A stretch of DNA of 64,000 nucleotides, taken from the NCBI GenBank assembly GCA_964619725.1, contig CAZUFC010000025.1, positions 10,385 through 74,384 on the forward strand, read 5' to 3'. The notes under the pieces were generated by a model. It saw only the letters and a program-made list of their open reading frames with translations. It ran no database searches and was not told the origin of the DNA. The DNA comes from an uncultured bacterium. Its GTDB lineage: Bacteria; CSSED10-310; CAZUFC01. Of the stretch, positions 14,950 to 33,013 are shown piece after piece. How positions within the stretch are numbered: position 1 is the first letter of the stretch; each line of letters opens with the position of its first letter. The position numbers were made by a program, and so were the translations under genes.

Positions 14950-14964
14950 TTTGTTCCCACTTTT

Positions 14965-15369: not shown

Positions 15370-15440
15370 AAGTTACTCCCAGCAAATACAAATTTGAAGA
15401 GCCAGTCGAAGAACCGGTCCCTTAAGGAATATCCTGAAAG

Positions 15441-15866: not shown

Positions 15867-15872
15867 TTGAAT

Positions 15873-17813
15873 TTACTCCAATGCTTTTTCAACCATCGCT
15901 AAAATCTGGTTAGAAGTGAATCCTCTTTGTTCCATGGCCCCTGAGGGGCAAGTAGCCGCGCAATTTCCGCAGCATTTGCATAAAACGGTATTGACGTTCG
16001 AAATTCTTTTACCGTTTTTAACTTCGAGTGAAATAGCCGAGTAAGGACAGACTGCAACGCAAGCGCCGCATCCTGAACAAACATCCTCATCGACCAGTGA
16101 TGTGTAGGGGTCCGCAATGAATTTTCCCGGATTCATCAGAGTTATCGCTCTGGCAGCGGCGGCGCTGCCCTGTGCGACGCTGTCTGGAATGTCCTTGGGA
16201 CCCTGGACGGTTCCCGCGACGAAGACGCCTTCGGATAGAGTATCGACCGGTCTGAATTTGGGATGCGCTTCTTTCAGAAAACCGTCATCCCCCTTGGCCA
16301 GCCTCAGAAGCTCCGCAACGATGCCGGTTCCCTCATGGGGTATCATGCCGACGGAAAGAATGACTGAATCGAATTCCGATTCGATAATATCTCTGGAGAG
16401 CGTATCTTCTGCTTTAAGAAGAATTCTTCCGTTATGCATGTTTTCCTGTAATTGAGCGACGCGTCCCCTGATAAATTTCACCCCTTCTCTCTGCGCTCTT
16501 TTATAGTATTCCTCGAATCCTTTTCCGTAGGCTCTGAGGTCCGTATAGAAAATATAGACGTCTTTGGATTTGTCGGTTCTTTTCAGCAACTGGGCCAATT
16601 TGCTTGCGTACATGCAGCAGATTCTGGAGCAGTATTCGTTTCCGCACTGTTCGTCTCTGGAGCCGACGCATTGAATAAAGGCGATTCTTTTACCGAGGTC
16701 GGTGATGGGTTCGCCTTCGGTAGCGTGTGCAATAATTCTTTCCAGTTCCAAGGAAGTATAGACGTTATCGAATTTGCCGAAGCCGTAGACGGCCTTTTGC
16801 GTGGCGTCGAAAACCTGATAACCTGTTGAGACAATGATCGTATCGACGGTGAAAGTTAATTCCTGTGGTTTATCGTCGTAATTGATGGCGTTGGGTTCGC
16901 AAACTTCTGAGCATTTAGTGCAAGCCAGGGGGAAAAGGCCCAGGCATGATTCGGAGTCAAGGATGTAGGTGTGAGGAACAGCGATGGAGTTGGGCAGGTA
17001 GATGGCTCTTCGGGAGGTCAGTCCTTCGTCTTGTTCGTTGGGGACGACGACGGGGCAGACATCTTCGCATTTTTCACAGCAGGTGCAGAGCGACGGATCG
17101 ACGAAGGTGGGTTTCTTTCTGACCGTAACCTGATAGTTACCCAGAAAACCGTCCACACTCAGCAATTCCGTGCTGGTCATCAGTTCGATGTTGGGATTTG
17201 CGGGAACGTCGGCCATTTTGGGCGAAAGAATACAGGCGGCGCAGTCTTCCGTGGGGAAGGTCCTGGAGAGTTTAACCATGTGACCGCCTATGGATGGTTC
17301 TTTCTCAACAAGATAAACCTTGAAGCCTGCATTGCCGAGGTCAAGAGCGGCCTGGATGCCGGCAATACCGCCGCCGACGACCAGGACTCTTTTGCCGACA
17401 GGCATTGACAATTTTTCCAGAGGTTCATCCAATCTTGCTTTTGTAATGGCCATATTGGTGAGCGATTTCGCTTTTTCGGTCGCTTCCTCTTTAAAGCTGA
17501 AGTGGGGCCAGGAGCATTGTTCGCGAATATTGGCCATTTCAAAGACATAAGGGTTCAATCCAGCTTTTTCCACTGTGGTCATGAACGTCGCACCCTGGAA
17601 CTGGGGTGAGCATGCCGCTATGACTACGCGATCCAGTTTGTGTTCCTTGATGTCATCAATGACCAATCTTTGACCGACCTCAGAACACATATGAGTGTGA
17701 TCCTTAACCATAACGACGTCACCCTGTTGTTCCGCAAATCGCACTACTTGATCAATATCAACGACTTCAGCGATGTTGCTTCCACAGTGACAAACATATA
17801 CACCGATTCTCAT
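15873..17813 (-). CDS. hdrA: Heterodisulfide reductase subunit A (canonical length)
   Basis: RIGVYVCHCG, AACSP, ANIREQCSW, GGGIAG, TFPTEDCAACIL, QCVGSRD...YCSRICC and a C-terminal ferredoxin domain. Confidence 0.95.
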   Translation of the reverse strand: MRIGVYVCHCGSNIAEVVDIDQVVRFAEQQGDVVMVKDHTHMCSEVGQRLVIDDIKEHKLDRVVIAACSPQFQGATFMTTVEKAGLNPYVFEMANIREQCSWPHFSFKEEATEKAKSLTNMAITKARLDEPLEKLSMPVGKRVLVVGGGIAGIQAALDLGNAGFKVYLVEKEPSIGGHMVKLSRTFPTEDCAACILSPKMADVPANPNIELMTSTELLSVDGFLGNYQVTVRKKPTFVDPSLCTCCEKCEDVCPVVVPNEQDEGLTSRRAIYLPNSIAVPHTYILDSESCLGLFPLACTKCSEVCEPNAINYDDKPQELTFTVDTIIVSTGYQVFDATQKAVYGFGKFDNVYTSLELERIIAHATEGEPITDLGKRIAFIQCVGSRDEQCGNEYCSRICCMYASKLAQLLKRTDKSKDVYIFYTDLRAYGKGFEEYYKRAQREGVKFIRGRVAQLQENMHNGRILLKAEDTLSRDIIESEFDSVILSVGMIPHEGTGIVAELLRLAKGDDGFLKEAHPKFRPVDTLSEGVFVAGTVQGPKDIPDSVAQGSAAAARAITLMNPGKFIADPYTSLVDEDVCSGCGACVAVCPYSAISLEVKNGKRISNVNTVLCKCCGNCAATCPSGAMEQRGFTSNQILAMVEKALE

Positions 17814-17983
17814 GTTATTGTATCCCTCTACTTTATGTTTTCCTAAACATTACCGTTGCGTTGAAGGCAGTCTGAGCGTCCCTGCCGCAAGGACCAATCG
17901 CCTGGAAACGAGCATTTTGCGTTCGATGAAGCGTTAAGTTTTCTGTGATCGGGCTCATACTGCCGAGATTAAAAATTCCGAAT

Positions 17984-18853
17984 TTATGGGATTAAAGAAG
18001 CCAGAGTTTTTCCGATGTCAGCGGGACTTCCGGCCACGGCAGCTCCGGCCTTTTTCAGCGCCTCTATTTTCTCAGGCGCGGTTCCTTTGCCGCCAGAGAT
18101 AATGGCGCCGGCATGCCCCATACGTTTTCCCGGAGGCGCTGTTCTGCCTGCGATAAACGCTGCCACAGGTTTTTTGACTTCCCCCTTGATGAATTCCGCC
18201 GCTTCCTCTTCCGCTGTTCCTCCTATTTCCCCGATAAGGACAATGGCGTCGGTATCCGGGTCTTCATTGAACAGTTTAAGGTAATCGATGAAATTCATTC
18301 CAAGTATGGGATCGCCGCCCATGCCGATGCATGTCGATTGTCCTATGTCCCTTTCAGAGAGCTGGTGTATGGCTTCGTAAGTGAGGGTTCCGCTGCGCGA
18401 TATGACGCCGACGGCGCCGGGCTTATGAATATATCCCGGCATAATTCCTATTTTGCACTTTCCGGGAGAAATGACGCCCGGGCAGTTCGGCCCTATCAGT
18501 CGAACGTCCGTGTTCTCAATGATTCTTTTTACTTTCACCATATCCAGTACGGGAATGCCTTCGGTTATGCATACGATCAGTTTAATTCCAGCGTCGGCCG
18601 CTTCCAGTATCGCATCTGCGGCGAATGCCGGAGGTACGAAAATCATGGTCGCGTCAGCGCCGGTGGTTTCCCTGGCTTCCGATACGGTATCAAAGACTGG
18701 AATTCCTTCCACTTCCTCGCCGCCTTTTCCCGGCGTAACTCCGCCGACTACTTTCGTGCCGTATTCAAGACAACGGAGAGTATGGAAGGCGCCGGCCTTT
18801 CCGGTAATACCCTGACAAATCATTTTGGTTTTTTCATCTGCTAGAATCGACAT
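17984..18853 (-). CDS. sucD: Succinyl-CoA synthetase alpha subunit
   Basis: [27 protein letters not shown]. Confidence 0.97.
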
Positions 18854-18868
18854 TTTGCTCGCCCTTAC

Positions 18869-20032
18869 TCAATTTTTGATATTGGAAATTGCTTTTACCG
18901 CCGCGTCGTTAAAGTCTGAGGCTGTAATGATTTTAATATTCGATCTTTCCAGGATCGCCTTTCCTTCCTTCATGTTTGTTCCTTCAAGTCTGACGATGAG
19001 AGGAACTTTCAGGTCGACTTCCTTGAGAGCCGTCAGAATACCTTCGGCGATGACGTCGCATTTCATGATTCCGCCGAAAATATTGACCAGGACCGCTTTC
19101 ACGTTAGGGTCCTGAGTAAGAATTTTAAAGGCTTCCGTAACTTGATCGGTACTTGCGCTCCCTCCTACGTCCAGGAAATTCGCCGGTTCCGCGCCGTGCA
19201 GTTTAATGATGTCCATGGTAGCCATCGCCAGCCCCGCTCCATTGACCAGGCAGCCGATATTACCGTCAAGAGAAATATAACTCAGTCCGTTTTCCCTGGC
19301 AACTACCTCCTTCGGGTTCTCTTCGGTAACGTCTCTCAATTCAACGATATCAGCATGTCTGAACAATGAATTGTCGTCGAAATTCAGCTTGGCATCCAGC
19401 GCTAGCATATCGCCCTGTTTCGTGACGACCAGCGGGTTGATTTCCGCCAGCGAGCAATCATTGGCCAGGAATGCCCGGTAAAGGTTTGTGATCATCTTAA
19501 GGGCCGATTTGAATGTCTTTTTTTCTCGCAGGCCGAGTTTAAAAGCCATTCGTCTCGCCTGGTAGGACATCAATCCCACGGCCGGATCAACGAATTCCTT
19601 GTATATTTTTTCCGGGGTCTCAGCAGCGACCTTCTCTATTTCCATACCGCCTTCCGAGCTGCCCATTACGGCGACGCGATTAGTGCTTCTGTCGATGACC
19701 ATTCCCAGATATAGTTCCCGGTCAATATCACAGGCTTGTTCTATTAAGACTTTGCGAACTTCTTTGCCCTCGGGGGCCTGATGCGTCTTAAGAAGCATTC
19801 CCAGAATGTTTCCGGCATGAGAACGAACCTCCTGCTCCGATGAAGCCAGTTTGATGCCGCCCGCCTTTCCACGGCCCCCGGCATGCACCTGCGCTTTAAC
19901 TACCCATTTGTCGCCTCCGATGCGGGAGGCCGCTTCCGCCGCTTCCTCGACTGAAGCCGCTACCGCTCCGGCAGGAACAGGAACATTGAATTTCCTCAGT
20001 ATATCTTTTGCTTGATATTCGTGTACTTTCAT
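18869..20032 (-). CDS. sucC: Succinyl-CoA synthetase beta subunit
   Basis: [37 protein letters not shown]. Confidence 0.97.
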
Positions 20033-20043
20033 CCTATTTCTCG

Positions 20044-20628
20044 CTAGTATTTAATTTCAAGGATTCTTCCTGCCGCTTCAGAAGATTCTTGCTCCACCTT
20101 CCGATGCAAACTTTGCCCATACGAATCCATGGTTACGACTACGGGAAATCTTTCCACTTCCAGCACCCACAATGCTTCAGGAGTGCCGAATTCTTCCAGT
20201 TTAAAGACTTTTTTAACTTTTTTTATGGATTCCGCCAGAACAACAGCCAGTCCGCCTATCGCATGGAAATATACCGCTCCGTATTCGCTGCACGCTTCCA
20301 GCGTCCGGTCTCCCATGCCTCCTTTGCCTATGATCCCGACTACTCCATATTCCTTTATCACGTCCGCTTCATACGGTTCTTCGCGAATGCTGGTCGTCGG
20401 ACCGGCTGCAACGACTTTCCAACCCTCGTCTGTCTTCTTCATTATAGGGCCGCAATGATAAATAACCGAACCCCGCAGGAAGTCTCTCAGTTCTTCCGGC
20501 TTTTCCTCCACCATGTATTTATGAGCGGCGTCGCGGGCGGTAACGATCTGTCCGGTCAGCGCCGCTTCATCGCCTACTTTGAGTTCTCTGATTCTTTTTT
20601 CCGTGGTCGGTAATTCAATTTCAATCAT
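20044..20628 (-). CDS. Class I (Fe-S) fumarate hydratase, beta subunit
   Basis: TARDAAH, YHCGP, GPTTSIR, IGKGGM. Confidence 0.9.
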
Positions 20629-21484
20629 ACGTCACGCCACCTCCCGAATCGATAATCATTGTGCGGCGCCGGCAAGCCCAGCACATATAGGAAACGGATA
20701 CGAAAAAACAGGCCGGGTGACGCACCATGGCGCCCAGTTTGACGCCGAGAACGGTGGTTTTTCCGCCGAAACCCATGGGGCCTATGCCCAGCGAATTCAA
20801 TTCATCCGTCAATTTGGATTCCATTTTCGCCAGGGCCGCATTCTCGTTTTCATCGTCAAGCAATCTGAAAAACTGCTCCTTCGACAACCGATAAGAGGTC
20901 ATCCTGTCGCCGCCTATGCCTGCTCCTACCGTGCCCGGCGCGCATCCTTTGCCCTGAGCGGACACGATTGCATCGATAATGCATTTTCTGACTCCCTCAA
21001 GGTCCCGGCCGGCATTCAGCCTGCTGTCCGGCAATTTGTATTGAACGCCTACATTCTCGCTTCCCCCGCCTTTCAACATAAGACGGATTCGCAAGTCCTC
21101 CCTCTCCCACTGCTTGAAAGATATGTAAGGCGCTCCGGTTCCTGTGCCGTCGCCCACATTCTTCCCGCTTATCACGTCCACCGTGTTCGGCCTTAAATAA
21201 CACTTCGCCGTTGCCTCCCTGACGGCTTCCGTGATCAGCTCTTTCAATCCATTCTGCTTTCGCGATACGGGATGATCAACATAAAATAACGTAGTCCCCG
21301 TATCCTGGCACATCGGGACGGATTGTTCTCGAGCAAGCTCTATATTTTCCAGTATCCTGTTTAGCGTACTGCGAGCCAGACTCCCTTCCTGCTCCTCCGA
21401 TGCCGCCGTCCTTATCCGATTCTCAACATCAACGGGCAAATCCGTCGATGTCCTCCTGATTAGTTCGACAATTTCTTCCTTCAT
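20621..21484 (-). CDS. Class I (Fe-S) fumarate hydratase, alpha subunit
   Basis: PMCQDTG, KGGGSEN, GCAP, GIGPMGFGG, CWACRR. Confidence 0.9.
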   Translation of the reverse strand: MKEEIVELIRRTSTDLPVDVENRIRTAASEEQEGSLARSTLNRILENIELAREQSVPMCQDTGTTLFYVDHPVSRKQNGLKELITEAVREATAKCYLRPNTVDVISGKNVGDGTGTGAPYISFKQWEREDLRIRLMLKGGGSENVGVQYKLPDSRLNAGRDLEGVRKCIIDAIVSAQGKGCAPGTVGAGIGGDRMTSYRLSKEQFFRLLDDENENAALAKMESKLTDELNSLGIGPMGFGGKTTVLGVKLGAMVRHPACFFVSVSYMCWACRRRTMIIDSGGGVTYD

Positions 21485-22150
21485 GATGCATAACTGCTTC
21501 CTGAGGCGTTAAAATTTCTCGCTCCTACGTCCTCCTTGATAAAAACCGCAGGATTACTAAACTCTTCGATTAAGCGTCATCCGTAATCGACGACAATGGG
21601 GATTACGGATGATGCGGACGGTAACATAAAGATGAATACTTGTAAAGTGAAAAAACCTGAGAATACTCTATTTTTTTAAGCGAGTTCAATTTTTCCGACG
21701 AAACCGGTCTGTTTCTTCATCAAAGTAAAACGGGAAATTATCTTTATCAGGTTTTATGACTATTCAGCGCCTGTGGGCAGTTGTCCTAACAGTCGCCCGA
21801 TTATTCGCATCTATCGGGAAAATCGTTCCAACTTCTGGAAGAGCTGCTGACGGTATAGCGTTAAGAAGCATTTCCGGTTTTTTAGACTTGAATAACATCC
21901 TGTTCGCAACAGAGAGAATTTTTTGCAGAATGAGCAAAAGGATGGCTGGTTCGGGACTGAGTTCCGGTTTTAAAATGGAGGAGTACAGCAAGCAGGCGAC
22001 ATGATTTGAATATATCTGAGTAGCCTTTAAATTATAGATTTTAAATAGGAAACTGAGTCAAAAGGCTGGAGAAGAGGTATTATTTTTGTCCGGCGGCGGC
22101 GAGAAAGCAAAAAAACTTTGAATTAGAGGAGAATTTAACAAAAATAAGTG

Positions 22151-22180
22151 TTGATATGAAGGTGAGGAATTTGCTATGTT
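22151..22180 (+). promoter_or_regulatory. Putative sigma70 promoter of the hydrogenase operon
   Basis: TTGATA-18nt-TATGTT with a TG extension. Confidence 0.35.
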
Positions 22181-22388
22181 GCGTATGGTCCCGATTTCCG
22201 AAGAGGGACTGCCGGTTAAGAAATTTTGGCGCAAATCCGTTTTCTGTCTGGTGCGTTATTTAGGATTTAAGGAGGAATGAGAGACAAGGCGAAAGGTAGG
22301 AATAGAAGAGTGAAGGGAAAGTTTACGCCAAATTTTCATAAAATTTTTTATTTTTTTCAGGAGAAGAACTAATTAAAGGAGGTTGCGC

Positions 22389-23381
22389 ATGGCGAAACCA
22401 AAGGTAGGCTTTTACTGGTGCGCATCGTGCGGAGGGTGTGAGGAAGCGGTAGTAGACCTGGCGGAGGACATCCTGACGGTCGTGGATGCGGTAGACATAG
22501 TCTTTTGGCCTGTGGCGATGGATTTCAAGAAGAAGGACGTGGAGGCGATGGCCGACGGCGAGCTGGCAGTAAGTTTCATCAATGGAGGAGTTCGGAACGA
22601 CGAGCACGAGGAGATGGTTAAGTTACTGAGGCGGAAGAGCGGATTAGTGGTAGCATTCGGGGCCTGTGCGCATTTAGGAGGCATTCCGGGGTTAGCCAAT
22701 TTTTCGAATCGCGAGCTGGTGTTTGAGCGAGCGTATAAGAAGACGGCATCGACGCATAATCCGGATTACGTAACGCCACAGACGAAGAGCAGCGTGAACG
22801 GCAAGGAGTTGGAGCTTCCATTGTTTTGGGACACGTTGCATCCCTTGGATCATATAATCGATGTAGATTACTATTTGCCGGGATGTGCGCCGCCGCCGGA
22901 TTTAATAATGGATGCAGTGACGGCCATATTAAAGGGAGAGCTTCCGGAGAAGGGAGCGGTATTGTCGCCGAACAAGTCTTTATGCGATACGTGTCCGCGT
23001 TCGGAGAGCAAGCCTGATAAGCTGATGATGAAGGACATCAAGCGTCCTTATGAGGTCATTTTAGACCCAGAGAAATGTTTTCTTGAGCAAGGTGTGATAT
23101 GTTTAGGAATATCGACGAGGACGGGATGCGGGGAGCGCTGCATCAACGCGAACATGCCGTGTCGAGGATGTTTCGGGCCGTTGGACGGAATCCAGGACCA
23201 TGGGGCCAAGACATTGTCGGCCATAGCGTCTTTAGTGGGTATAGAAGGTGAGGAGAGCATGAGCGAGGAAGAGGTGCAGACGCAGATAGAAAAGATCAAG
23301 GACCCTGCAGGACTGTTCTATATGTATGGGTTGGCATCTTCTTTACTCGGAAGGAAACGCATTAAAGGAGGAAAAGCATAA
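22389..23381 (+). CDS. mvhG: F420-non-reducing [NiFe] hydrogenase small subunit
   Basis: ATG 22389 after AAGGAGG. CASCGGC, GACA, PGCAP, CFLEQGVICLG, PCRGC; no Tat signal. Confidence 0.92.
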   Translation: MAKPKVGFYWCASCGGCEEAVVDLAEDILTVVDAVDIVFWPVAMDFKKKDVEAMADGELAVSFINGGVRNDEHEEMVKLLRRKSGLVVAFGACAHLGGIPGLANFSNRELVFERAYKKTASTHNPDYVTPQTKSSVNGKELELPLFWDTLHPLDHIIDVDYYLPGCAPPPDLIMDAVTAILKGELPEKGAVLSPNKSLCDTCPRSESKPDKLMMKDIKRPYEVILDPEKCFLEQGVICLGISTRTGCGERCINANMPCRGCFGPLDGIQDHGAKTLSAIASLVGIEGEESMSEEEVQTQIEKIKDPAGLFYMYGLASSLLGRKRIKGGKA

Positions 23382-24838
23382 TGAAAAGGGTAACCATAGA
23401 CCCGATCACCAGGCTGGAGGGCCACGGCAAGATAGAGATATTTCTTGATGATACGGGCAATGTGGACAAGGCATTTCTGCAGATACCCGAATTAAGGGGA
23501 TTTGAGGAATTTTCAGTGGGCCGTATGGCGGAAGAGATGCCCCGGATTACGCCCAAGATATGCGGGGTATGTCCGACGACGCATCACATGGCTTCAGGAA
23601 AAACGCTGGACGACCTGTTTAACGTGGACCCGCCTGCAGCGGCCAAGAAGATTCGCGAGTTGATAAACTGTGCGTTCATGGCTGAGGATCACATACTGCA
23701 TTTTTATTTTCTGGGCGGACCTGATTTCGTGGTAGGTCCGGATGCTCCGGCTGCGGAACGCAATATTCTCGGCGTGATCAGCAAGGCGGGAATAGAGGCC
23801 GGCAAGAAGGTCATCGACATAAGGAAGAAGCTTCGCAACATAATAACGAAGCAGGGCGGTCGTGTGATTCATCCCGTATGCAATCTGCCCGGCGGCGTAT
23901 CCAAGGGAGTGACGCGTGAGGACCGGGAGGAGTACATAGCCATAGGGAAGGAAGCGATAGAGTTTGCGCAGTTTTCGTTGAAGCTTTTCGACGACATAGT
24001 GTTGAAGAATCAGAGTTACGTTGATACGATCGTGGGCGATGTTTACAAGCACAACACCTATTACATGGGTCTGGTCGACGGGAACAACAAGGTGAATTTT
24101 TACGACGGCGACATCCGCGTGGTTGACCCTGAAGGAACGGAATACGTCAAGTTCAAGCCGAGCGAGTATCTGGAACACATTGAAGAGCATGTGGAGCCGT
24201 GGAGTTATATCAAGTTTCCATATTTAAAGAATATTGGCTGGAAAGGATTCGTGGACGGCAAGGAGAGCGGAGTTTACCGCGTAGCGCCGCTGGCGCGATT
24301 GAATGCTGCAGACGGTATGGCGACGCCTCTGGCGCAGGCTGAATACGACAAGATGTACGAAGTTCTGGGCGGCAAACCGGCTCATAATACTCTGGCTTAT
24401 CATTGGGCCCGGCTGGTGGAAGTCCTCTATGCAGCCGAGAGATTGCTGGAATTGGCGGAAGATGAAGAAATACTTGATCCGACGGTGAGGAAGATACCGG
24501 AATCAGAGCCGAATGAAGGAATAGGAGTGGTGGAAGCGCCGCGGGGCACGCTTTTTCACCATTACAAGTCGGACAAGGACGGCATACTGACGGATGTAAA
24601 TTTAATTGTAGCGACAGTCAACAATTCTGCAGCATTGTGCATGTCTGTAGCCAAAGCCGCTTCAGGCGTCATCAAAAACGGCGAAGTGACGGACGGCGCT
24701 CTCAACATGGTCGAAATGGCCTTCCGCGCTTATGATCCGTGTATGGCGTGCGCGACGCATTCGCTGCCTGGCCAGACGCCGTTGGAAGTGAAGATACGCG
24801 ATCCCAGGGGAAGAACGCTCAAAACTTTGCGACGTTAG
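23381..24838 (+). CDS. mvhA: Group 3c [NiFe] hydrogenase large subunit
   Basis: TRLEGHG, PKICGVC, EAPRG, RAYDPCMACATH plus a C-terminal extension. Confidence 0.93.
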   Translation: MKRVTIDPITRLEGHGKIEIFLDDTGNVDKAFLQIPELRGFEEFSVGRMAEEMPRITPKICGVCPTTHHMASGKTLDDLFNVDPPAAAKKIRELINCAFMAEDHILHFYFLGGPDFVVGPDAPAAERNILGVISKAGIEAGKKVIDIRKKLRNIITKQGGRVIHPVCNLPGGVSKGVTREDREEYIAIGKEAIEFAQFSLKLFDDIVLKNQSYVDTIVGDVYKHNTYYMGLVDGNNKVNFYDGDIRVVDPEGTEYVKFKPSEYLEHIEEHVEPWSYIKFPYLKNIGWKGFVDGKESGVYRVAPLARLNAADGMATPLAQAEYDKMYEVLGGKPAHNTLAYHWARLVEVLYAAERLLELAEDEEILDPTVRKIPESEPNEGIGVVEAPRGTLFHHYKSDKDGILTDVNLIVATVNNSAALCMSVAKAASGVIKNGEVTDGALNMVEMAFRAYDPCMACATHSLPGQTPLEVKIRDPRGRTLKTLRR

Positions 24839-24872
24839 CATTTCCGAAAGGGGAAATTATCATCTCGATATT

Positions 24873-25328
24873 ATGAGAACGTTAGTATTGGGTTTGGGCA
24901 ATCCGATTTTATCGGATGATTCTGTGGGAATAAAAGTGGCGCAGATGCTCAAAAAGGCGGACCCGCCTTTAAAAGCGGAGATAAAAGAGGCGTGTGCGGG
25001 GGGGCTTACTATCCTGGACGAACTGGACGGTTTCGACCGGGTGATACTGGTGGACTCGATAAAGACGGGTAAAGCTTCCCCGGGAACGATTTACAGGCTG
25101 AAAGAGGAGGATTTCAACAGCACGACGCAGTTGTCCGATTCCCATGGCATTGATTTTTTCACAGCGATTGAGATGGGGCGGATATATGGTTGTAAAATGC
25201 CGGAGTTAATCGACATTTTCGCTGTTGAGGTGGAAGATAACGTTACCTTTAGCGAAGACTGCACTGACAAGGTGATGGAGAGTATCCCCATATTAGTGCG
25301 TCAGATAACGGAGGAGGTAAGCCGTTAA
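24873..25328 (+). CDS. Hydrogenase maturation protease
   Basis: LGLGNPILSDDSVG, ILVDS, SH motif. Confidence 0.92.
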   Translation: MRTLVLGLGNPILSDDSVGIKVAQMLKKADPPLKAEIKEACAGGLTILDELDGFDRVILVDSIKTGKASPGTIYRLKEEDFNSTTQLSDSHGIDFFTAIEMGRIYGCKMPELIDIFAVEVEDNVTFSEDCTDKVMESIPILVRQITEEVSR

Positions 25329-26773
25329 TGGAAATAGATTTTGATCGATTAGAAAAAATTGTCGGACCGCAGAACGTGAGAAAGGACCCTGTGGATTTGT
25401 ACATTTATGGAACGGATTCTTCAGTGCACGGGGTTCCTGCGAGCGTAGTGGTAAGGCCTGAAAGCACAGAGCAAGTGCAGGAAGTGCTGCGTTACGCTAA
25501 TTCCGCGGTCATTCCGGTTACGGCTCGCGGGGGCGGTTCCGGCATGTCGGGCCAGGCGATTCCGATGCGCGGCGGAATAGTGTTGGATTTAAAGCGGATG
25601 AACCGCATTCTTGATATAAGACCGGCCGATACGTTATGCGTCGTTGAAGCCGGGGTTGTGGACGACGACCTTAACCGCGCTCTGAAGCCTTACGGGGTTT
25701 TCTGGCCTGCGGCTCCCGCTTCGAGTCGCGTGGCGACTATCGGCGGCGAGATCGTCAACAACGCCAGCGGATTGCGTTCCGTCAAATACGGGGCGACAAG
25801 AGATTCTGTATTGGGAATGAAGGTCGTTATGGCCAACGGCGATTTGATTAAATTGGGAGCAAACACGCGAGTAGAAGCTTCAGGGTATCAGCTTGACAGA
25901 CTCATGGTCGGGTCGGAGGGCACCCTCGGCATCGTCGTAGAAGCCACCCTCAAAATAGTGCCCCTGCCGAAATTCAGATGCATGGGGGTTTCCTATTTCA
26001 AGGAACTGGAGCATGCAGGTGACGCTATTACGGACATTATTTCAAAGGGATGTCAGCCGTCGGTCCTGGAACTGATGGACGACGTAGCCATCGTTGCGGT
26101 GAATCGCGCCCTGGATATGGGCTTGCCGGAAGTTGAAGCTCTGCTCTTTTTTGAAGCGGACGGCATGGTTAAAGAAGTAGTGGATTATGAAATGGACAGA
26201 ATGAAGACTCTATGTGAAGAAAAGGGCGGCTTCGGCATTCATATGAGTTACGATGCCAAGGAAAGAACCAAAATTTTCTCTTCGCGGAAGAAACTTTTCC
26301 CTGCATTATCTCAGTATAGAGACGATCTGGCGTGCACATCTCTGGCCGATGATATGGCCGTCCCTTATTCTCGTATGGCGGAACTGGCCCGGAAAATACA
26401 TGAAATTGCGGATAAAAATAACGTGGTGATGACGGCATACGGCCACTGCGGTTCAGGTTGCATGCATACCAAGATATTGATGGACCCGACCAAGGAATCG
26501 CAATGGGACGATGCCAGAAGAGCTGTCCAGGAAACTTATGATTATGTTTATTCCCTGGGCGGAACTACTTCAGCAGAACATGGGATCGGGCTGTCCAAAG
26601 CTCCTTCCTTCAAGAAAGAAAAGGCGGATTCGCTGGCCGTAATGAAGGCCGTCAAGAAGGCGCTTGACCCTAATAACATTCTGAACCCTGACAAGATGCA
26701 GGATGCCCCTGATGATTGGGTTACGGCGACCAAGCTTCGTTATAACGTGTGCGGATGCTCCGGTTACTATTAG
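25328..26773 (+). CDS. FAD-linked oxidoreductase, GlcD/D-2-hydroxyacid dehydrogenase family
   Basis: ARGGGSG, ATIGG, VKYG, GSEGTLG, GHCGSGCMH, SAEHGIG, LDPNNILNP. Confidence 0.9.
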   Translation: MEIDFDRLEKIVGPQNVRKDPVDLYIYGTDSSVHGVPASVVVRPESTEQVQEVLRYANSAVIPVTARGGGSGMSGQAIPMRGGIVLDLKRMNRILDIRPADTLCVVEAGVVDDDLNRALKPYGVFWPAAPASSRVATIGGEIVNNASGLRSVKYGATRDSVLGMKVVMANGDLIKLGANTRVEASGYQLDRLMVGSEGTLGIVVEATLKIVPLPKFRCMGVSYFKELEHAGDAITDIISKGCQPSVLELMDDVAIVAVNRALDMGLPEVEALLFFEADGMVKEVVDYEMDRMKTLCEEKGGFGIHMSYDAKERTKIFSSRKKLFPALSQYRDDLACTSLADDMAVPYSRMAELARKIHEIADKNNVVMTAYGHCGSGCMHTKILMDPTKESQWDDARRAVQETYDYVYSLGGTTSAEHGIGLSKAPSFKKEKADSLAVMKAVKKALDPNNILNPDKMQDAPDDWVTATKLRYNVCGCSGYY

Positions 26774-26797
26774 GGGATTGAGGATAGAGGAGGAACA

Positions 26798-27346
26798 ATG
26801 GAATTCAAGAATTCGGAAAAATGGAGATGCAAATTAAATGCGTGCATCAGGTGCGGGTATTGCTATGAAAATTGTCATTTGTTCCGCGTAAGCGGATGGG
26901 AAACGGATACGTCGCGGTCCAAGTTGGTGATGCTGCACGGTATAATGGAGGGCGACCTGGAACCGACGGAATATGCTGTCGAGAAGTTCTTCCAATGTTA
27001 CATGTGCAAGCGGTGCGATACTACATGTTCCGCCAAGGTCCCCGTTACGGATATTTTCAAGGATGCGCGGGCTGATTTCATTGAAGCCGGCTTTGATCCG
27101 GTAGGAACCATATCTCAAACGGATGAAGATGTCTGCTGCAGGTGTCAGATATGCATTTCCGTCTGCAAGCATGAAGCTCGTTCCTATGACAAGGAAAACG
27201 ATAAAATCGTGGTGGACAAGGTTAAATGTGAAAGTTGCGGCTGTTGCGTCGCGGCATGCCCTTCGGGAGCTGCCTATAGTCCGGAGGGTTTTGGCGTCAG
27301 TCAAAAAGAATTGCGAGAACAGGTTGTTGTTTTTCTGGGAGGATAA
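26798..27346 (+). CDS. Poly-ferredoxin: GlcF/HdrC-like N domain fused to an HdrA-C-terminal-like ferredoxin domain
   Basis: CIRCGYCYENC, CYMCKRCDTTC, DEDVCCRCQICISVC, CESCGCCVAACPSGA. Confidence 0.8.
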   Translation: MEFKNSEKWRCKLNACIRCGYCYENCHLFRVSGWETDTSRSKLVMLHGIMEGDLEPTEYAVEKFFQCYMCKRCDTTCSAKVPVTDIFKDARADFIEAGFDPVGTISQTDEDVCCRCQICISVCKHEARSYDKENDKIVVDKVKCESCGCCVAACPSGAAYSPEGFGVSQKELREQVVVFLGG

Positions 27347-27351
27347 TTAAT

Positions 27352-27744
27352 ATGAGCGACCGAAAAACCATTATTTTCTTTTGTGAGTGGTCATCGCATC
27401 CCGGTCTGAAACTGTCGCGTTATGCCGAAGAGGAATCCGGCAAGGAACAAAAAATGATCGTCAGCATGTGCCAGGGAAGGGTTTCCCCGGAATTGATCCT
27501 GGAAGCCTTCGGAAAGGGCGCCTGGGGCGTCATGCTGGCCAGTTGCCCGCCGGATGAATGCGAACATGATGCTAATTACAAGGCGCGCCGCAGAATTCTG
27601 TTGACGCAAAAAGTCCTGGAACAATTCGGTATAGAAAAGGATCGGCTTCAAATGGAGTGGATCAGCAAGGGAGACGCCGCCGCTTTCGATAAAGCAGTTC
27701 TCAACTTCGAAAGTCACATCACTGAACTGGGGCCGCCGCTTTGA
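27352..27744 (+). CDS. mvhD: Divergent MvhD-family subunit
   Basis: FFCEWS, MCQGRV, SCPPDECEH, NYKARRR, DRLQMEW. Confidence 0.8.
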   Translation: MSDRKTIIFFCEWSSHPGLKLSRYAEEESGKEQKMIVSMCQGRVSPELILEAFGKGAWGVMLASCPPDECEHDANYKARRRILLTQKVLEQFGIEKDRLQMEWISKGDAAAFDKAVLNFESHITELGPPL

Positions 27745-27804: not shown

Positions 27805-27845
27805 AAATGCCGGAAGTCTGGTCGAACCAGGCTTCCGGCATTTTT
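27805..27845. terminator. Bidirectional intrinsic terminator
   Basis: AAATGCCGGAAGTCTGGT-cga-ACCAGGCTTCCGGCATTT hairpin between convergent genes. Confidence 0.8.
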
Positions 27846-29220
27846 AGTCGGAAATCCAAACAGTCTTGATATTGACGAATTCTCGTATGCCCTCTTCGGA
27901 AAGCTCTCTCCCGTAACCGGATTCTTTTATGCCGCCGAAGGGAAGCCGTGGGTCCGATTTAACCATTCCGTTGACGAATATGCAGCCGGCATTTATTTTT
28001 GAGGCCAGCCCGGCGCCCAGTTTCGTATCGGCGGTCCAGACGGAAGCGCCCAATCCGTAAGGGGTATGATTGGCCAGTCTGACGGCATCTTCAGTATCCC
28101 TGGCTTCAATAACCGCTGCAACCGGACCGAAAGTTTCTTCATCAGCCGCCGGCATACCGGGCGCGACGCGGGTCAGCATCGTCGCAGGATAGAAATACCC
28201 TTTGCCTTCAGGAACTTTTCCGCCCAGCACAACCTCAGCCCCCTTCTCAACAGACTCCGTTACCTGCCTGTGCAATTTATTCCTCAGGTCTTCACGAGCG
28301 AGAGGTCCGATATCAGCGTCATCCTGCAGAGGATCGCCCATTTTGAGTCTGGCGAGTCCTTTTTTCATAAGGTCGCAAAATTCTTCCCAAACCTCTTTGA
28401 CAACAATAAAACGCTTCGCCGCAATGCAACTCTGCCCGGAATTCAACGCCCTGGATTGAACTCCGGTCTCAGCCGCTCGTTTCAAATCAGCATCCTTGAG
28501 GACGATAAAAGGGTCGCTGCCTCCCAATTCCATTACTGTCTTTTTCAGCGCACGACCCGCTGTAGAAGCAACGCTTCGGCCTGCCCTGTCGCTTCCCGTT
28601 AAAGTGACGGCGCTGACGGCGTTATGACTTATAATATCGCCTACATCCTCTTCTGAAACGAAAAGATTTACAAAAACGCCTTCAGGAAAACCGGCCTCAC
28701 GGAAAATCCCTTCAATGGCCTGGGCGCACTGGGGAACGTTCGGCGCATGCTTCAACAAAGCAGCGTTGCCCGCCGTCAGCGCCGGCGCCGCAAATCGGAA
28801 TACCTGCCAGAATGGAAAATTCCAGGGCATTATCGCCAGTATCACTCCCAGAGGATCGTAACGAACGTAACTCTCTTTCGCATCAGAACTCTTGCGGCGG
28901 CTCAACAGAAATTCTTCCGCATTATCCGCGAAATAACGGCATACCCAGGCGCATTTCGCCGCTTCACCCTGCGCTTCCTTTATAGGCTTGCCCATCTCGA
29001 CCGTCATCAGCTCACCCAATCGTCTCTTCTCGTCCTCAAGCAGGTCCGCCGCCTTGTGCAGAAGCTCGGTTCTTTTTTTCAAAGGCGTTTCTCGCCACGA
29101 ATCGAAAGCTCTTGACGCAGTTCCCAATAATACCTTCGTCTCCTCTTTGCTTATACATTCAAACTCTTTTAATACCTCGCCGCTTGATGGATTTCGTGAG
29201 ATAAAATTCCTTGCGCTCAT
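27844..29220 (-). CDS. NAD(P)-dependent succinate-semialdehyde dehydrogenase (Sad/GabD1 type)
   Basis: IMPWNFP, TLTGS, ELGGSDP, GQSCIAAK, EETFGP, PFGGIKESGYGRE. Confidence 0.88.
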   Translation of the reverse strand: MSARNFISRNPSSGEVLKEFECISKEETKVLLGTASRAFDSWRETPLKKRTELLHKAADLLEDEKRRLGELMTVEMGKPIKEAQGEAAKCAWVCRYFADNAEEFLLSRRKSSDAKESYVRYDPLGVILAIMPWNFPFWQVFRFAAPALTAGNAALLKHAPNVPQCAQAIEGIFREAGFPEGVFVNLFVSEEDVGDIISHNAVSAVTLTGSDRAGRSVASTAGRALKKTVMELGGSDPFIVLKDADLKRAAETGVQSRALNSGQSCIAAKRFIVVKEVWEEFCDLMKKGLARLKMGDPLQDDADIGPLAREDLRNKLHRQVTESVEKGAEVVLGGKVPEGKGYFYPATMLTRVAPGMPAADEETFGPVAAVIEARDTEDAVRLANHTPYGLGASVWTADTKLGAGLASKINAGCIFVNGMVKSDPRLPFGGIKESGYGRELSEEGIREFVNIKTVWISD

Positions 29221-29713
29221 TGCTTGATTCTCCTGATAATTAACTAATCATTGAACAACAGGACCGCCGCTTCCTTTTCCCATTCATTCTCTTTCCTTGC
29301 CCGCAATACTTGAAATAACTCATCATCAACTGCGGATCGGCCCCGCGGAACTCCTTCGACTGATGTCCTTTTATTGGATTCCCGTTAACTTATTGCTGCG
29401 AAAACTTTTACCGCTGATTCACCGATTTGCGCCACTGGCGTTCGAGGCTCACTGTCACGGTACGAACAGCCCCGGACGGGAATGTTTATATTAATATAAT
29501 GAAATAATGCTGTAAAGGAGCAGGACATCGTGAGGATGTGCAAACGGCATCTGAAAATAATTTTGCTGCTGCAGGGGGAATGATTTTTTGGAATTTTTTT
29601 TATTTATCGCAAAAAAGACTTGACTTGACTTGATTCTTGGAGTAATTATTAGAACTTAGTCTAGGTCATTGACCATGAATTTCTAGTCAAGGATTTCAAC
29701 AGAAACCAAAACA

Positions 29714-30901
29714 ATGAATAAAACATCAGAAAAAATTTCAATCAACGAAGGTCGACTGAGTGGAAGTCAAGCATGCGTCGAGGGCGCCTTTGCGGCAGGA
29801 TGCCGTTTTTACAGCGGTTATCCGATAGAGCCTGCATTGGATGTAATGAATTATTTTTTAAAGCGGGCGCCTCATTTTGATGCCACGTTCATTCAAATGG
29901 AAGATGAGATATCGGCTCTGGCGGCATTGCTGGGAGCGGTATGGACGGGCAAGCGAGGATTAACGGCGACGTCCGGACCGGGTTTTTCGCTCATGATGGA
30001 GCATCTGGGACTGGGCATCATGCTTGAGACTCCATGCGTAATTGTGGATGTGCAGAGGGCCGGTTTATCGACGGGGATACCGGAGATGGCTGGTCAGGGA
30101 GACGTGATGCAGGCCCGGTGGGGGTCACACGGAGATTACGAATTAGTAACGTTATGTCCGAGTTCTCCACAGGAAATGTTTAATTTCACGTTTGAGGCGT
30201 TCAATCTGGCGGAGAGGTACAGGATACCAGTGGTAGTATTGACGGATGAGTATGTAGCGCACATGGAGGGTGAGGTAACGGCGCCGGACAGGGTAGAGAT
30301 TGAGCCGCGCCGGTATTTTACGGGTCCGAAGGATCAGTATTTTCCGTTCAAGCGGGACAGGGACCTGATTCCCCGCATGGTGGACATAGGACAGGGTTAC
30401 AGGTTTCATGTGACAGGACTGACGCACGATGACCGGGGTTACCCCATTATGAACGAGGAATGCCAGGAGTATAACGTTCATCCTCTGGTCTGGAAGATAC
30501 GGAGGAACGAGGACAAGTTAACGCGGGTGAAGGAGACCAGGACGGAGGATGCTGAGGTTATCATCGTTTCATACGGAGCGACGGTGAAATTTGCTCTTCG
30601 TGCGGTAGAGGAGGCGCGAAAGGCGGGAATAAAGGCGGGTCATATGCAAATAGAGGTGATCTGGCCGTTTCCCGACAAGCATATAGCTAAAGCGGCCAAG
30701 AACGTGAAGGCTTTCGTAGTGCCTGAGATGAATCACGGTCAGGCAGTTTACGAGGTTCAGAGGAGCAGCTACGGCGGAGCCAACGTTGTATTCGTGCATC
30801 ATGGAGAGGATGGAATCGAGAACATAGATGCGATGCTTTCCGCTATGGAAAACGCCATAAAAGAACCGGGTATCAAAGAGGGGATACTCGAATACCGTTA
30901 G
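29714..30901 (+). CDS. korA: 2-oxoacid:ferredoxin oxidoreductase alpha subunit (copy 1, YPIEP variant)
   Basis: GYPIEP, QMEDE, TSGPGFSLM, QRAG, VPEMN. Confidence 0.85.
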   Translation: MNKTSEKISINEGRLSGSQACVEGAFAAGCRFYSGYPIEPALDVMNYFLKRAPHFDATFIQMEDEISALAALLGAVWTGKRGLTATSGPGFSLMMEHLGLGIMLETPCVIVDVQRAGLSTGIPEMAGQGDVMQARWGSHGDYELVTLCPSSPQEMFNFTFEAFNLAERYRIPVVVLTDEYVAHMEGEVTAPDRVEIEPRRYFTGPKDQYFPFKRDRDLIPRMVDIGQGYRFHVTGLTHDDRGYPIMNEECQEYNVHPLVWKIRRNEDKLTRVKETRTEDAEVIIVSYGATVKFALRAVEEARKAGIKAGHMQIEVIWPFPDKHIAKAAKNVKAFVVPEMNHGQAVYEVQRSSYGGANVVFVHHGEDGIENIDAMLSAMENAIKEPGIKEGILEYR

Positions 30902-30911
30902 GGAGCTATTA

Positions 30912-31775
30912 ATGGAAGTAACTGAAGAAAAAAAGATTCAAGCGAGTGAAAACGAACATCCGTTGGAGGACCTGCTCCGAATGGACAGGATTCCTCATAT
31001 CTGGTGTCCCAGTTGCGGCATAGGCTTGGGGGTGACGGCTTTTGCCGATGCTTTGAACCGTGCCGAGGTTGATCTGGACAATCTGGCGATTGTTTCAGGT
31101 ATCGGGTGCACCGGAAGGGTGGCGGGATATACGAAGCTGGATTCTTTTCATACGACGCATGGAAGGCCAATCGCTTTTGCGACGGGCATCAAGGTGGGCA
31201 ATCCCAAGTTGAAGGTGGTGGTTTTTTCCGGCGACGGCGATTTGATATCGATCGGCGGGAACCATTTCATTCATGCTGCGAGAAGAAACATAGACATGCT
31301 GGTGATATGCGTGAACAATTTCATATACGCCATGACGGGCGGTCAGGTCGCTCCGACGACGCCGCTGGGCGCATATGCGACGACTTCGCCGTACGGATGC
31401 TGCGAAGCGCCGTTTAACGTTCCCTATATAGCGGATTCGGCGGGCGCTGTTTATGTAGCCAGGTGGACCGCATTGCATATCAGGAGGTTGACCAATTCCA
31501 TCGTCGAGGCGTTGAACAAGAATGGGTTATCGGTCATTGAGGTGATATCGCCTTGCGCAATGTATTATTCCAGGATCAATAAGCTGGGCGACGGTTTGGA
31601 CATGATGAGGTTCTATCATGAGAATTCGGAAGTGAGGAACGGCGAGGATACGAAGAACGTTGATTTATCATTTCAGTCAAAAATCGTCGTCGGGAAATTT
31701 GTAGATAGAGAGAGACCGAGTTACACGGATTTGTATAAGAAGTGGGCAGATGAAGTCAAAGGAAAGAAAGAATGA
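30912..31775 (+). CDS. korB: 2-oxoacid:ferredoxin oxidoreductase beta subunit (intact TPP motif)
   Basis: WCPSCG, SGIGC, HGR, GDGD...NN, SPC. Confidence 0.9.
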   Translation: MEVTEEKKIQASENEHPLEDLLRMDRIPHIWCPSCGIGLGVTAFADALNRAEVDLDNLAIVSGIGCTGRVAGYTKLDSFHTTHGRPIAFATGIKVGNPKLKVVVFSGDGDLISIGGNHFIHAARRNIDMLVICVNNFIYAMTGGQVAPTTPLGAYATTSPYGCCEAPFNVPYIADSAGAVYVARWTALHIRRLTNSIVEALNKNGLSVIEVISPCAMYYSRINKLGDGLDMMRFYHENSEVRNGEDTKNVDLSFQSKIVVGKFVDRERPSYTDLYKKWADEVKGKKE

Positions 31776-33013
31776 AGGCAGACCCTAAAAATGTAAAGAC
31801 AGGCATATATTGCATGGACGGGGATGTTGCAGCGGGATATGGAGCGTTGGCTGCCGGTTGCGGTTTCATTGCGGGTTATCCGATTACTCCGTCGACTGAA
31901 GCAGCGGAGGCGTTCGCAAAGATTGCGCCTACGGCAGGCGCCCTGTTTATTCAGATGGAAGATGAGCTGGCATCCATTGCCGCCATCATGGGGGCAGTCT
32001 GGGCCGGCGTTAAAGCCATGACTATAACGTCAGGACCGGGATTCTCGCTCATGATGGAAACCATCGGTTTGGGCGCTATGATCGAAGCTCCGTTCGTCCT
32101 GCTGAACATCCAGAGGGGAGGACCGTCGACGGGAGTTCCCACGAAGACGGGCCAGGCGGACATGATGCAGTCCCGCTGGGGATCGCAAGGCGATTATGAG
32201 GTTATCGCGTTATCGCCGGATTCGCCGCAGGAAATGTTCAATTATACGATAAAGGCGTTTAATCTTGCTGAAAAATACCGATGTCCGGTTATGATTATGT
32301 CGGATGAATGCGTCGGGCACATGACCGAGAAGGTCGTCGTGCCGGAAGCCGACGAGATTGAAATTGTTCCGAGGCGTTTTTATTCGGGACCGAGAGAAGA
32401 ATACAAGCCCTTCAAGCCCGATCAGGATATGGTTCCCCCCATGGTCAGGATAGGCGACGGTTACAATCTCTGCATCTCCAGCATGATCCATGACGAAATG
32501 GGCCATCCCATTGATAAGGAGCATTACAGGTCGAAATATACGAGACGCCTGGTCGACAAAATAAGGCGTAATAAAAACGACATCATCGAGTTGTCGGAAG
32601 ACGGCATCGAGGATGCCGAAGTTGTCGTGGTTTCTTACGGCATTTCTTACAGAGTGGCGGTGAGAGGTATCGAGAAGGCCAGGGAGAGAGGGATAAAGGT
32701 CGGAAATTTAAGACTTATAACAGTATTTCCCTTTCCCGATGAAAAAATTGCTGAATTGTCTCACAGGGTTAAAGCGTTCGTTGTTCCTGAGATTAACTAT
32801 GGCCAGATCGTATACGAAGTGGAAAGGTGTTCGCATGGCAATGCCAACGTGGTTCTGGTTCCTCACGGAGGAGCGGGAGTTCAGCATCCGGACGATATAG
32901 CCGATGCTATTGAGTATGCAGCGAAAGAAGAACGCAGGATAGAGGGCTTTATCGAACATCAAACAAAACTTGAAAAACTGGTTTTTTCAGAAGGTTACGT
33001 AGTAAAAGAATGA
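31772..33013 (+). CDS. korA: 2-oxoacid:ferredoxin oxidoreductase alpha subunit (copy 2, canonical)
   Basis: GYPITPS, QMEDE, TSGPG, QRGGPSTG. Confidence 0.9.
   Translation: MKADPKNVKTGIYCMDGDVAAGYGALAAGCGFIAGYPITPSTEAAEAFAKIAPTAGALFIQMEDELASIAAIMGAVWAGVKAMTITSGPGFSLMMETIGLGAMIEAPFVLLNIQRGGPSTGVPTKTGQADMMQSRWGSQGDYEVIALSPDSPQEMFNYTIKAFNLAEKYRCPVMIMSDECVGHMTEKVVVPEADEIEIVPRRFYSGPREEYKPFKPDQDMVPPMVRIGDGYNLCISSMIHDEMGHPIDKEHYRSKYTRRLVDKIRRNKNDIIELSEDGIEDAEVVVVSYGISYRVAVRGIEKARERGIKVGNLRLITVFPFPDEKIAELSHRVKAFVVPEINYGQIVYEVERCSHGNANVVLVPHGGAGVQHPDDIADAIEYAAKEERRIEGFIEHQTKLEKLVFSEGYVVKE

Follow-up and report, generated by a model that had tools for sequence, protein, structure and literature searches.

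Gene content of the operon

We analyzed a six-gene operon of an uncultured bacterium (GTDB lineage CSSED10-310; assembly GCA_964619725.1, contig CAZUFC010000025.1), encoding a [NiFe]-hydrogenase of the Mvh type, a predicted D-2-hydroxyacid dehydrogenase of the GlcD family, a small iron-sulfur (Fe-S) protein, below called the adaptor, and an MvhD-family protein, below called MvhD2. The window is the whole analyzed stretch of 64,000 nt, and all coordinates are positions in it. Gene identities were assigned by Pfam and NCBIfam profile matches. The open reading frames (ORFs) lie back to back on the forward strand (22389-27744) with spacings of -1, 34, -1, 24 and 5 nt; hence the tight operon mvhG-mvhA-protease-glcD-like-FeS-mvhD, noted in the original prediction made from the sequence alone, is found exactly where it was placed, its genes being at most 34 nt apart.

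The mvhG-like gene (22389-23381) encodes the hydrogenase small subunit (Oxidored_q6, 1.8e-22; VhuG NF045875, 6e-63, with 212.7 bits under the 450-bit cut-off). Its longest ORF opens at TTG 22383, with ATG 22389 as an alternative start, and the latter is the likely one, as it is preceded at a distance of 6 nt by the consensus ribosome-binding site AAAGGAGG. The mvhA-like gene (23381-24838) encodes the large subunit (NiFeSe_Hases, 2e-33), for which VhuA (NF041785) is the top family match (2e-125; 418.6 bits, the cut-off being 800 bits). In [NiFe]-hydrogenases, an N-terminal CxxC and a C-terminal DPCxxC provide the nickel-iron ligands, and the C-terminal extension is cleavable. In MvhA, the CGVC motif occupies residues 61-64, DPCMAC is found close to the C-terminus with a further 25 residues beyond it, and the adjoining gene (24873-25328) encodes a maturation endopeptidase of the HycI/HybD family (HycI, 1.6e-8; TIGR00072 (hydrog_prot), 9e-27, over the cut-off). 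The partners characteristic of group 3c hydrogenases, MvhD and HdrABC, are represented by MvhD2 in the operon and by hdrA-mvhD1-hdrC-hdrB located 4.5 kb upstream on the opposite strand. A genome search identified only one Mvh-type hydrogenase in the assembly.

The remaining genes encode the predicted FAD- and metal-dependent D-2-hydroxyacid dehydrogenase of the GlcD/LDHD/D2HGDH family (25328-26773; FAD_binding_4, 2e-43; FAD-oxidase_C, 3e-54), the adaptor of 182 amino acids (aa) with four CxxCxxCxxxC motifs (26798-27346), and MvhD2, a [2Fe-2S]-type MvhD paralogue (27352-27744; FlpD, 1.4e-33).

The divergent intergenic region between fumA and mvhG (21485-22388, about 900 nt) is unusually long and may be regulatory; it contains an 82-aa ORF (21756-22004) with no Pfam match. 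The promoter and terminator scan yielded six promoter-like and two terminator-like sites, numbers at or below the expectation from shuffled sequences that say nothing on co-transcription, and the Rfam scan of the window gave no match.

The Fe-S adaptor protein

The adaptor consists of an HdrC/GlcF-like domain (residues 1-100) and a domain resembling the C-terminal ferredoxin domain of HdrA (residues 103-182). In the former, residues 13-86 match GlcF (NF008434, 1.3e-9), LutB and Fer4_17/Fer4_8, and no CCG domain (PF02754) was found in the protein by Pfam, setting it apart from GlcF/HdrD-type proteins with two such domains. Domain mapping of 26798-27346 with hidden Markov models thus agrees with the suggestion that the first half resembles the GlcF N-terminus without CCG domains. 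Nor is the adaptor an HdrA, as it has Fer4-type domains only and lacks the FAD-binding thioredoxin-reductase domain with the inserted ferredoxin domain. All 16 cysteines, forming the four CxxCxxCxxxC motifs, are invariant in 81 sequences.

The parallel between the second half and the HdrA C-terminus, also proposed originally, is borne out by several comparisons. Residues 106-169 are 44% identical to residues 572-636 of HdrA from the same window (E 2e-11). The top three matches of the C-terminal half in the 9.2-Mb assembly are the tails of three HdrA-family ORFs, and at most about 80 nt 3' of each of them an MvhD-family gene starts. When the profile of the adaptor family was compared with all PDB sequences, HdrA tails scored 59-69 bits per single stretch (9sfi_A, 8rvu_a, 5odc_A) and any other single stretch at most 45 bits, polyferredoxins coming to the top only by summing many repeats. 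At the level of sequence, the likeness of the C-terminal half to the HdrA tail is more specific than a generic likeness to ferredoxins. The original prediction treated the relation between this HdrA domain and MvhD as established, and in PMC9012536 the HdrA C-terminal ferredoxin domain is indeed described as passing on electrons from MvhD.

The AlphaFold2 model of the adaptor (pLDDT 93.6, pTM 0.86) was compared with solved structures by VIA-align. Residues 5-100 align with HdrC (8rwn_C, Z 9.6, 87 residues), and residues 103-182 with HdrA tails (8rvu_A, Z 11.5, 74 residues; 7bkb_A, Z 10.8, 77 residues; 5odc_A, Z 10.1, 78 residues). Since plain 2x[4Fe-4S] ferredoxins reach Z 9.8-10.7 on the same domain, which ties with the 10.1-11.5 of HdrA tails, the structure alone is consistent with an HdrA tail and not discriminating. 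Plain ferredoxins align over 55-60 residues (103-162), and only HdrA chains, with 74-78 aligned residues, reach the terminal helix of the adaptor.

MvhD2 and its association with the adaptor

MvhD2 matches FlpD (PF02662) with 115.9 bits (cut-off 22.3 bits) and is 38% identical to MvhD1, encoded next to hdrA. Its residues C11, C40, C65 and C70 are invariant in 77 sequences.

The association of the two proteins was followed across genomes by scanning one genome per species (about 185,000 species genomes), of which 294 encode a relative of the adaptor; the counts of loci given here and below refer to the best 80 of these 294 adaptor loci, examined by tblastn with the window proteins. An MvhD gene is located at most 200 nt 3' of the adaptor gene in 78 of the 80 loci, one of the others having no room for it and one lacking it despite sufficient room, and in 44 of the 78 the adaptor and MvhD form a single ORF. 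Such natural fusions are also frequent among database matches of the adaptor, PF02662 being present in 17 of 92 near-length matches and in 71 of 76 longer ones. Among these 76 longer matches no fusion of the adaptor with GlcD or with a hydrogenase subunit was found, the five besides the adaptor-MvhD proteins being weak partial matches. One natural fusion (P0064, 58% identical to the window adaptor) is predicted to fold into one compact structure (pLDDT 89.2, pTM 0.86), and its last 130 residues align with MvhD from the methanogen complex (5odc_D, Z 16.0, rmsd 2.7, 125 residues, 44% identity).

A tree was computed for 119 MvhD sequences of the examined loci and the window (a quick search on 129 columns). 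In it, a single branch with SH-aLRT support of 100 divides the 77 adaptor-adjacent sequences from the remaining 42. MvhD2 is best described, by its place in this tree and its gene context, as a paralogue dedicated to the adaptor.

Conservation of the locus across genomes

Adaptor carriers belong to lineages of sediments, mats and digesters. A GlcD orthologue is encoded upstream of the adaptor on the same strand in 69 of the 80 loci, at a distance of at most 200 nt in 60 of them, and the orthologues are 62-76% identical across phyla. In nine loci a gene intervenes between glcD and the adaptor gene; in the one checked (L010) it encodes a GlcF-like protein with Fer4 and CCG domains. The same locus has a DsrE/DsrF-like sulfur-carrier gene 3' of mvhD2 (L010:9235-9657). 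GlcD is absent despite sufficient room in eight loci, and in three there is no room to judge.

Mvh subunits more than 50% identical to those of the window are encoded in 31 of the 80 loci (24 with GlcD and seven without), and in 13 loci the Mvh genes are located at most 151 nt from the module. The taxonomic labels of hydrogenase-linked loci include Fidelibacterota, KSB1, Cloacimonadota, Armatimonadota, Thermoplasmatota, Woesearchaeota and Coatesbacteria. For instance, the gene order is mvhG-mvhA-glcD-FeS-mvhD-larA in KSB1 (L015) and mvhG-glcD-FeS-mvhD-larA in a Marinimicrobia locus cut by the contig end (L014). Hence the gene order, which could have been unique to this genome, recurs in several phyla, given MvhD in 78, GlcD in 69 and hydrogenase linkage in 31 of the 80 loci.

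In seven of the eight GlcD-less loci, which are all GlcD-less loci with a hydrogenase, the adaptor and MvhD2 genes stay beside the hydrogenase genes, and in one (L049:3002-6399) they interrupt the hydrogenase structural genes, with mvhG on one side and mvhA on the other. In all five genomes tested among these, a GlcD orthologue (65-73% identity) is encoded elsewhere, adjoining a GlcF-like gene (three cases), a larA gene (two) or a fumarase gene (one).

A search of 30 other genomes, including 13 of the same phylum, yielded no adaptor at E<=1e-30. The distribution of the adaptor thus seems patchy, which suggests probable horizontal spread.

Active site and predicted substrate of the GlcD-family protein

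The nearest solved relatives of the window GlcD are a glycolate oxidase (9qgz_A, 1e-75), LctD from the lactate dehydrogenase complex Ldh-EtfAB (7qh2_C, 3.3e-72), mouse LDHD (1e-58) and human D2HGDH (2e-46). In PMC10589216, residues R347, H398, H405, E442 and H443 of LDHD are described as binding the metal and glycolate. The aligned residues of GlcD, R320, H373, H380, E417 and H418, are invariant in 65 orthologues, and the protein thus combines the FAD_binding_4 and FAD-oxidase_C domains with the subsite A residues of the GlcD/LDHD/D2HGDH subfamily. Subsite B is hydrophobic in D-lactate-specific enzymes of the LDHD/LctD type (Trp351, Ser365 and Ile407 in LDHD). According to the alignment, GlcD differs from LDHD at these pocket positions: Phe324 corresponds to W351 of LDHD and T390 of D2HGDH, and Ala340 to S365 and K401, respectively. 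Lys382, invariant in all 65 orthologues, corresponds to Ile407 of LDHD and Asn443 of D2HGDH, and is replaced by Tyr in LctD and by Leu in 9qgz. A conserved positively charged residue here suits a second carboxylate and would argue for a dicarboxylic substrate.

Of the 80 loci, 35 contain a LarA-family gene, as does the window (7888-9273). For all five LarA homologues compared, LarAH6 is the top family (374-394 bits, compared to 289-309 bits for lactate racemase). The malate racemase activity of LarAH6/Mar2 is reported as experimentally shown in Table 1 of PMC7583248, and malate racemases are described as the largest LarA group in PMC11770544. A second LarA homologue is encoded on contig C21 of the same genome.

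Based on the LarAH6-like neighbors, Lys382, and the surrounding genes of malate dehydrogenase, fumarase and fumarate reductase, we favor oxaloacetate/D-malate as the substrate couple, at about even odds. Other hydroxyacids rank below it, and so does the pyruvate/D-lactate couple, which seems unlikely; lactate as the default substrate was downgraded in view of the closeness of the LarA homologues to LarAH6 and the invariant pocket lysine.

Genomic neighborhood

Upstream of the operon and divergent from it, an array of genes on the reverse strand (7888-21484) encodes enzymes of C4-acid metabolism. It comprises the LarA-family racemase (7888-9273, best profile match to the malate racemase LarAH6), two NAD-malate dehydrogenases (9307-10242 and 10245-11192), a predicted soluble Hdr-linked fumarate reductase located 4.5 kb from the hydrogenase operon (11522-17813), and succinyl-CoA synthetase and fumarase (sucD, sucC, and the beta and alpha subunits of fumarate hydratase, 17984-21484). 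The fumarate reductase operon, in the order of transcription, consists of hdrA (15873-17813), mvhD1 (15441-15866), hdrC (14965-15369), an hdrB/SdhE-like gene (14056-14949), a frdB-like gene with Fer2 and Fer4 domains (13276-14040) and a frdA/tfrA-like gene (11522-13183). FrdA is encoded in 15 of the 80 loci, and in loci of Dehalococcoidia (L029) hdrC-hdrB-Fe-S-frdA is found again, 3' of the GlcD module.

The original prediction suggested that the GlcD enzyme takes the place of HdrABC. This part has to be given up: GlcD does not replace HdrABC, since the operon hdrA-mvhD1-hdrC-hdrB-frdB-frdA is present and the genome has a single Mvh-type hydrogenase. Instead, this hydrogenase probably serves both MvhD-tipped clients, the GlcD module and the Hdr-linked fumarate reductase, in alternation.

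On the other side, the 3' end of the operon lies 99 nt from a convergent aldehyde dehydrogenase gene, similar to NADP-dependent succinate-semialdehyde dehydrogenase (589 bits, under the 730-bit cut-off) and followed by genes of 2-oxoacid:ferredoxin oxidoreductase subunits; genes of C4/C5-acid metabolism are thus also found at 27844-33013, beside the operon. At the beginning of the window, a second Hdr-like module on the forward strand (1794-7768) encodes a 974-aa HdrA-like protein that carries ferredoxin domains at its two ends, along with an MvhD, a Fer4 protein, a protein similar to FrhB/FdhB and a second MvhD; a similar set is found upstream of the GlcD module in one of the other loci (L001). 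Of the six MvhD genes of the genome, the window contains four.

A GlcD paralogue (64% identical) is encoded on the reverse strand of contig C34 (56923-58792), directly 5' of a 367-aa ORF, the N-terminus of which is 45% identical to the N-terminal domain of the adaptor. This ORF presumably encodes a classical partner of the GlcF/CCG type, in which case the genome would carry both types of partners.

Proposed electron transfer and alternative explanations

The gene identities, the domain architecture, the conserved pairing of GlcD, the adaptor and MvhD2, and the recurrent hydrogenase linkage are observed; from them we infer a physical complex, an electron path, a substrate and a direction. We propose, with a probability of roughly 0.55, that the products of the six genes form one soluble hydrogenase/D-2-hydroxyacid dehydrogenase complex with a linear chain of clusters from NiFe to FAD. 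Electrons would pass from the NiFe site of MvhA via three [4Fe-4S] clusters of MvhG and the [2Fe-2S] cluster of MvhD2 to the adaptor, there via two [4Fe-4S] clusters of the HdrA-tail-like domain and two of the HdrC/GlcF-like domain, and finally to the FAD of GlcD. Overall, the complex would catalyze H2 + 2-oxoacid <-> D-2-hydroxyacid, without bifurcation, and the LarA-type racemase would link the D-acid to the neighboring genes of L-malate, fumarate and succinate metabolism. The standard potentials are -414 mV for H+/H2, -172 mV for oxaloacetate/malate and -190 mV for pyruvate/lactate, so H2-driven reduction of the oxoacid is strongly favorable. The direction is probably set by the H2 pressure, with uptake when H2 is high, and evolution when H2 is very low and the oxoacid is low as well; the reverse reaction requires an H2 pressure of a few Pa together with a very low ratio of oxoacid to hydroxyacid, which is plausible for oxaloacetate in syntrophic settings. 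An H2-coupled D-malate dehydrogenase together with LarA and the NAD-malate dehydrogenases might even act as a stereochemical shunt, running as NADH + oxaloacetate -> L-malate -> D-malate -> oxaloacetate + H2 or in the opposite direction, an idea we consider quite unlikely.

Several observations weigh against the proposed complex or its details. By the same standard potentials, H2 evolution is hard. GlcD scores 370.5 bits, below the equivalog cut-off of TIGR00387 (567.9 bits), and all five LarA homologues are under the 500-bit cut-off of LarAH6 (NF052593). In the 91%-complete genome no match to LarC (PF01969) was found, and the top match to LarE (TIGR00268) has 38 bits with a cut-off of 150 bits, both proteins being needed for the nickel-pincer cofactor of the racemase; lacking LarC and a convincing LarE, the genome weakens the substrate argument based on the racemase. 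The locus is contained in four DNA sequencing runs of one study, two of them with only a small share of its sequence words, and no RNA run is among the runs listed as containing it. The Hdr-linked fumarate reductase of the same genome could be the main client of the hydrogenase. Finally, 45 of the 80 loci, belonging to Acidobacteriota, Thermodesulfobacteriota, Chloroflexota and others, combine GlcD, the adaptor and MvhD with no hydrogenase within 8 kb. The fused form without hydrogenase linkage is found, e.g., in organisms of the Desulfobacter/Desulfobacula type, which include cultivable carriers. In ten genomes with such loci a large subunit of the Mvh type was sought: five have one at 56-69% identity, one has a 46-62% match interrupted by stop codons, two have only 39-43%, one has at most 31% and one has no large-subunit match. 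As at least two of these ten genomes show no Mvh-type large subunit, some organisms must use MvhD2 with other partners. Therefore, of the originally suggested wiring of the hydrogenase to GlcD, the GlcD/adaptor/MvhD pairing and the hydrogenase linkage in 31 loci hold, but the module is not specific to hydrogenases.

Among these large-subunit matches, those in the genomes of L048, L066, L079 and L058 (G041, G044, G005 and G042) contain just one TGA in frame, which is what Vhu-type enzymes with selenocysteine would show. In the genome of L053, the match is split in two pieces and interrupted by TGA and TAG.

The retention of the triad without a hydrogenase in these 45 loci would be explained if GlcD, the adaptor and MvhD2 formed an input module that oxidizes hydroxyacids and docks elsewhere, e.g. 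on the Hdr-linked fumarate reductase (as a malate/lactate:fumarate oxidoreductase), the hydrogenase genes adjoining it only as fellow clients of one Hdr gene neighborhood. In Dehalococcoidia loci the module is located directly 5' of larA-fumarase-hdrC-hdrB-frdB-frdA; FrdA in 15 loci and the several MvhD and HdrA-like genes of the window point in the same direction; the transfer of electrons from malate or lactate to fumarate is strongly exergonic by standard potentials; and MvhD takes donors other than hydrogenases in the solved complexes 7bkb and 8rvu, according to the titles of these entries. On the other hand, in the fusions the HdrA-tail-like domain already fills the HdrA side of MvhD, the order being the same as in HdrA2-MvhD fusions (NF040770), and the face of MvhD that binds MvhG in 5ODC would stay free. 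Moreover, in the seven GlcD-less loci the adaptor and MvhD2 genes remain next to those of the hydrogenase, in L049 even between mvhG and mvhA, and we consider docking elsewhere than on the hydrogenase doubtful for the window operon.

The HdrC-like character of the adaptor N-terminal domain (8rwn_C, Z 9.6-10.2 over 87-88 residues) would also fit a confurcating or bifurcating super-complex, in which GlcD and the adaptor feed the high-potential pair to HdrA instead of HdrBC (hydroxyacid + reduced ferredoxin -> 2 H2), making it an Hdr-based analogue of Ldh-EtfAB. Confurcation would overcome the uphill step to H2, HdrA genes are common in the loci (full-length in 14 of the 80), and LctD, the solved close relative of GlcD, acts in a confurcating complex according to the title of 7qh2. 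Still, many hydrogenase-linked loci, e.g. L015, L020, L073 and L080, have no full-length HdrA in the available sequence, the adaptor's own HdrA-tail-like domain and MvhD would be redundant if it docked on HdrA like HdrC, and none of the present analyses gives direct support for confurcation, which makes it improbable. Even less credible is the absence of any dedicated complex, with the adaptor being a generic soluble polyferredoxin co-transcribed by chance, and GlcD and the hydrogenase acting independently. The Z-scores of the C-terminal domain, which do not part HdrA tails from plain ferredoxins, leave some room for this explanation; the conserved order, the fusions with MvhD, the dedicated MvhD clade, the HdrA-tail-specific likeness and the 62-76% identity of GlcD orthologues would be unexpected for a generic ferredoxin.

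Comparison with known systems

The apparent novelty of the proposed complex is the joining of the Mvh/MvhD wiring to a GlcD-family dehydrogenase, and the link from H2 to organic acids appears to be undescribed. The original prediction did not recognize such an H2:2-oxoacid linkage as described, and likewise no complex of GlcD with a hydrogenase or with MvhD turned up in our searches of full-text literature outside subscription journals and supplements. Group 3c hydrogenases outside methanogens are routinely annotated as MvhADG-HdrABC, e.g. in surveys of Cloacimonadota and WOR-3, and their real acceptors may differ. If the proposed complex exists, it would be a second, non-bifurcating client of Mvh-type hydrogenases, tying H2 directly to oxaloacetate/malate or pyruvate/lactate. 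If the shunt also operates, anaerobes of many phyla could swap electrons among NADH, C4 acids and H2 without an NAD-binding hydrogenase, and the very widespread malate racemases would gain a candidate physiological role.

Compared to the MvhADG-HdrABC complex of methanogens (5ODC/5ODH), the window operon shares the Mvh-type subunits (MvhD with Z 16 and 41-44% identity), the two-cluster domain similar to the HdrA C-terminal ferredoxin preceding MvhD, and the HdrC-like two-cluster domain. It differs in lacking the flavin/thioredoxin-reductase domain of HdrA, the inserted ferredoxin domain and the HdrB/CCG active site; the chain would end in a GlcD-family flavoenzyme, with no apparent site for bifurcation.

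The catalytic subunit is a close relative of that of Ldh-EtfAB from Acetobacterium woodii (LctBCD, 7QH2). A LarA-type racemase gene is associated with the lct operon as well, similarly to the 35 loci observed here. As electron partner, however, the module would have the Fe-S/MvhD wire, which often lies next to a hydrogenase, in place of EtfAB and NAD: no ETF domain was found in the 20 window proteins scanned around the operon, and among the loci ETF genes were noted only in one from Desulfobacula (L052), on the opposite strand. Besides, pocket position 382 is Lys in the module and Tyr in LctD, and the racemases neighboring the module resemble malate racemases.

With GlcDEF and D-lactate dehydrogenases composed of GlcD and an HdrD/GlcF-like protein (Dld-II/LdhAB; Dld-HdrD of Asgard archaea, PMC9723677), the module shares GlcD and an Fe-S subunit with a GlcF/HdrC-like N-terminal domain, whereas the CCG domains are replaced by the HdrA-tail-like ferredoxin domain and MvhD. 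Some loci (L010) carry both the adaptor and a classical GlcF-like partner. The closest idea found in print is that of the Asgard study, in which lactate is linked to H2 indirectly, by way of the CoM/CoB thiols: Dld-HdrD would reduce the CoM/CoB heterodisulfide, and Hdr-Mvh would couple it to H2 (PMC9723677).

Finally, the Fdh-MvhD-Hdr (7BKB) and Elp-Hdr (8RVU) complexes resemble the module in that MvhD is an exchangeable plug between a donor module and the HdrA tail, and the MvhD part of the fusion model aligns well with both (7bkb_F, Z 15.9; 8rvu_F, Z 15.8). In those complexes the tail belongs to a bifurcating HdrA, whereas in the module it belongs to a small adaptor that would lead to a hydroxyacid dehydrogenase.

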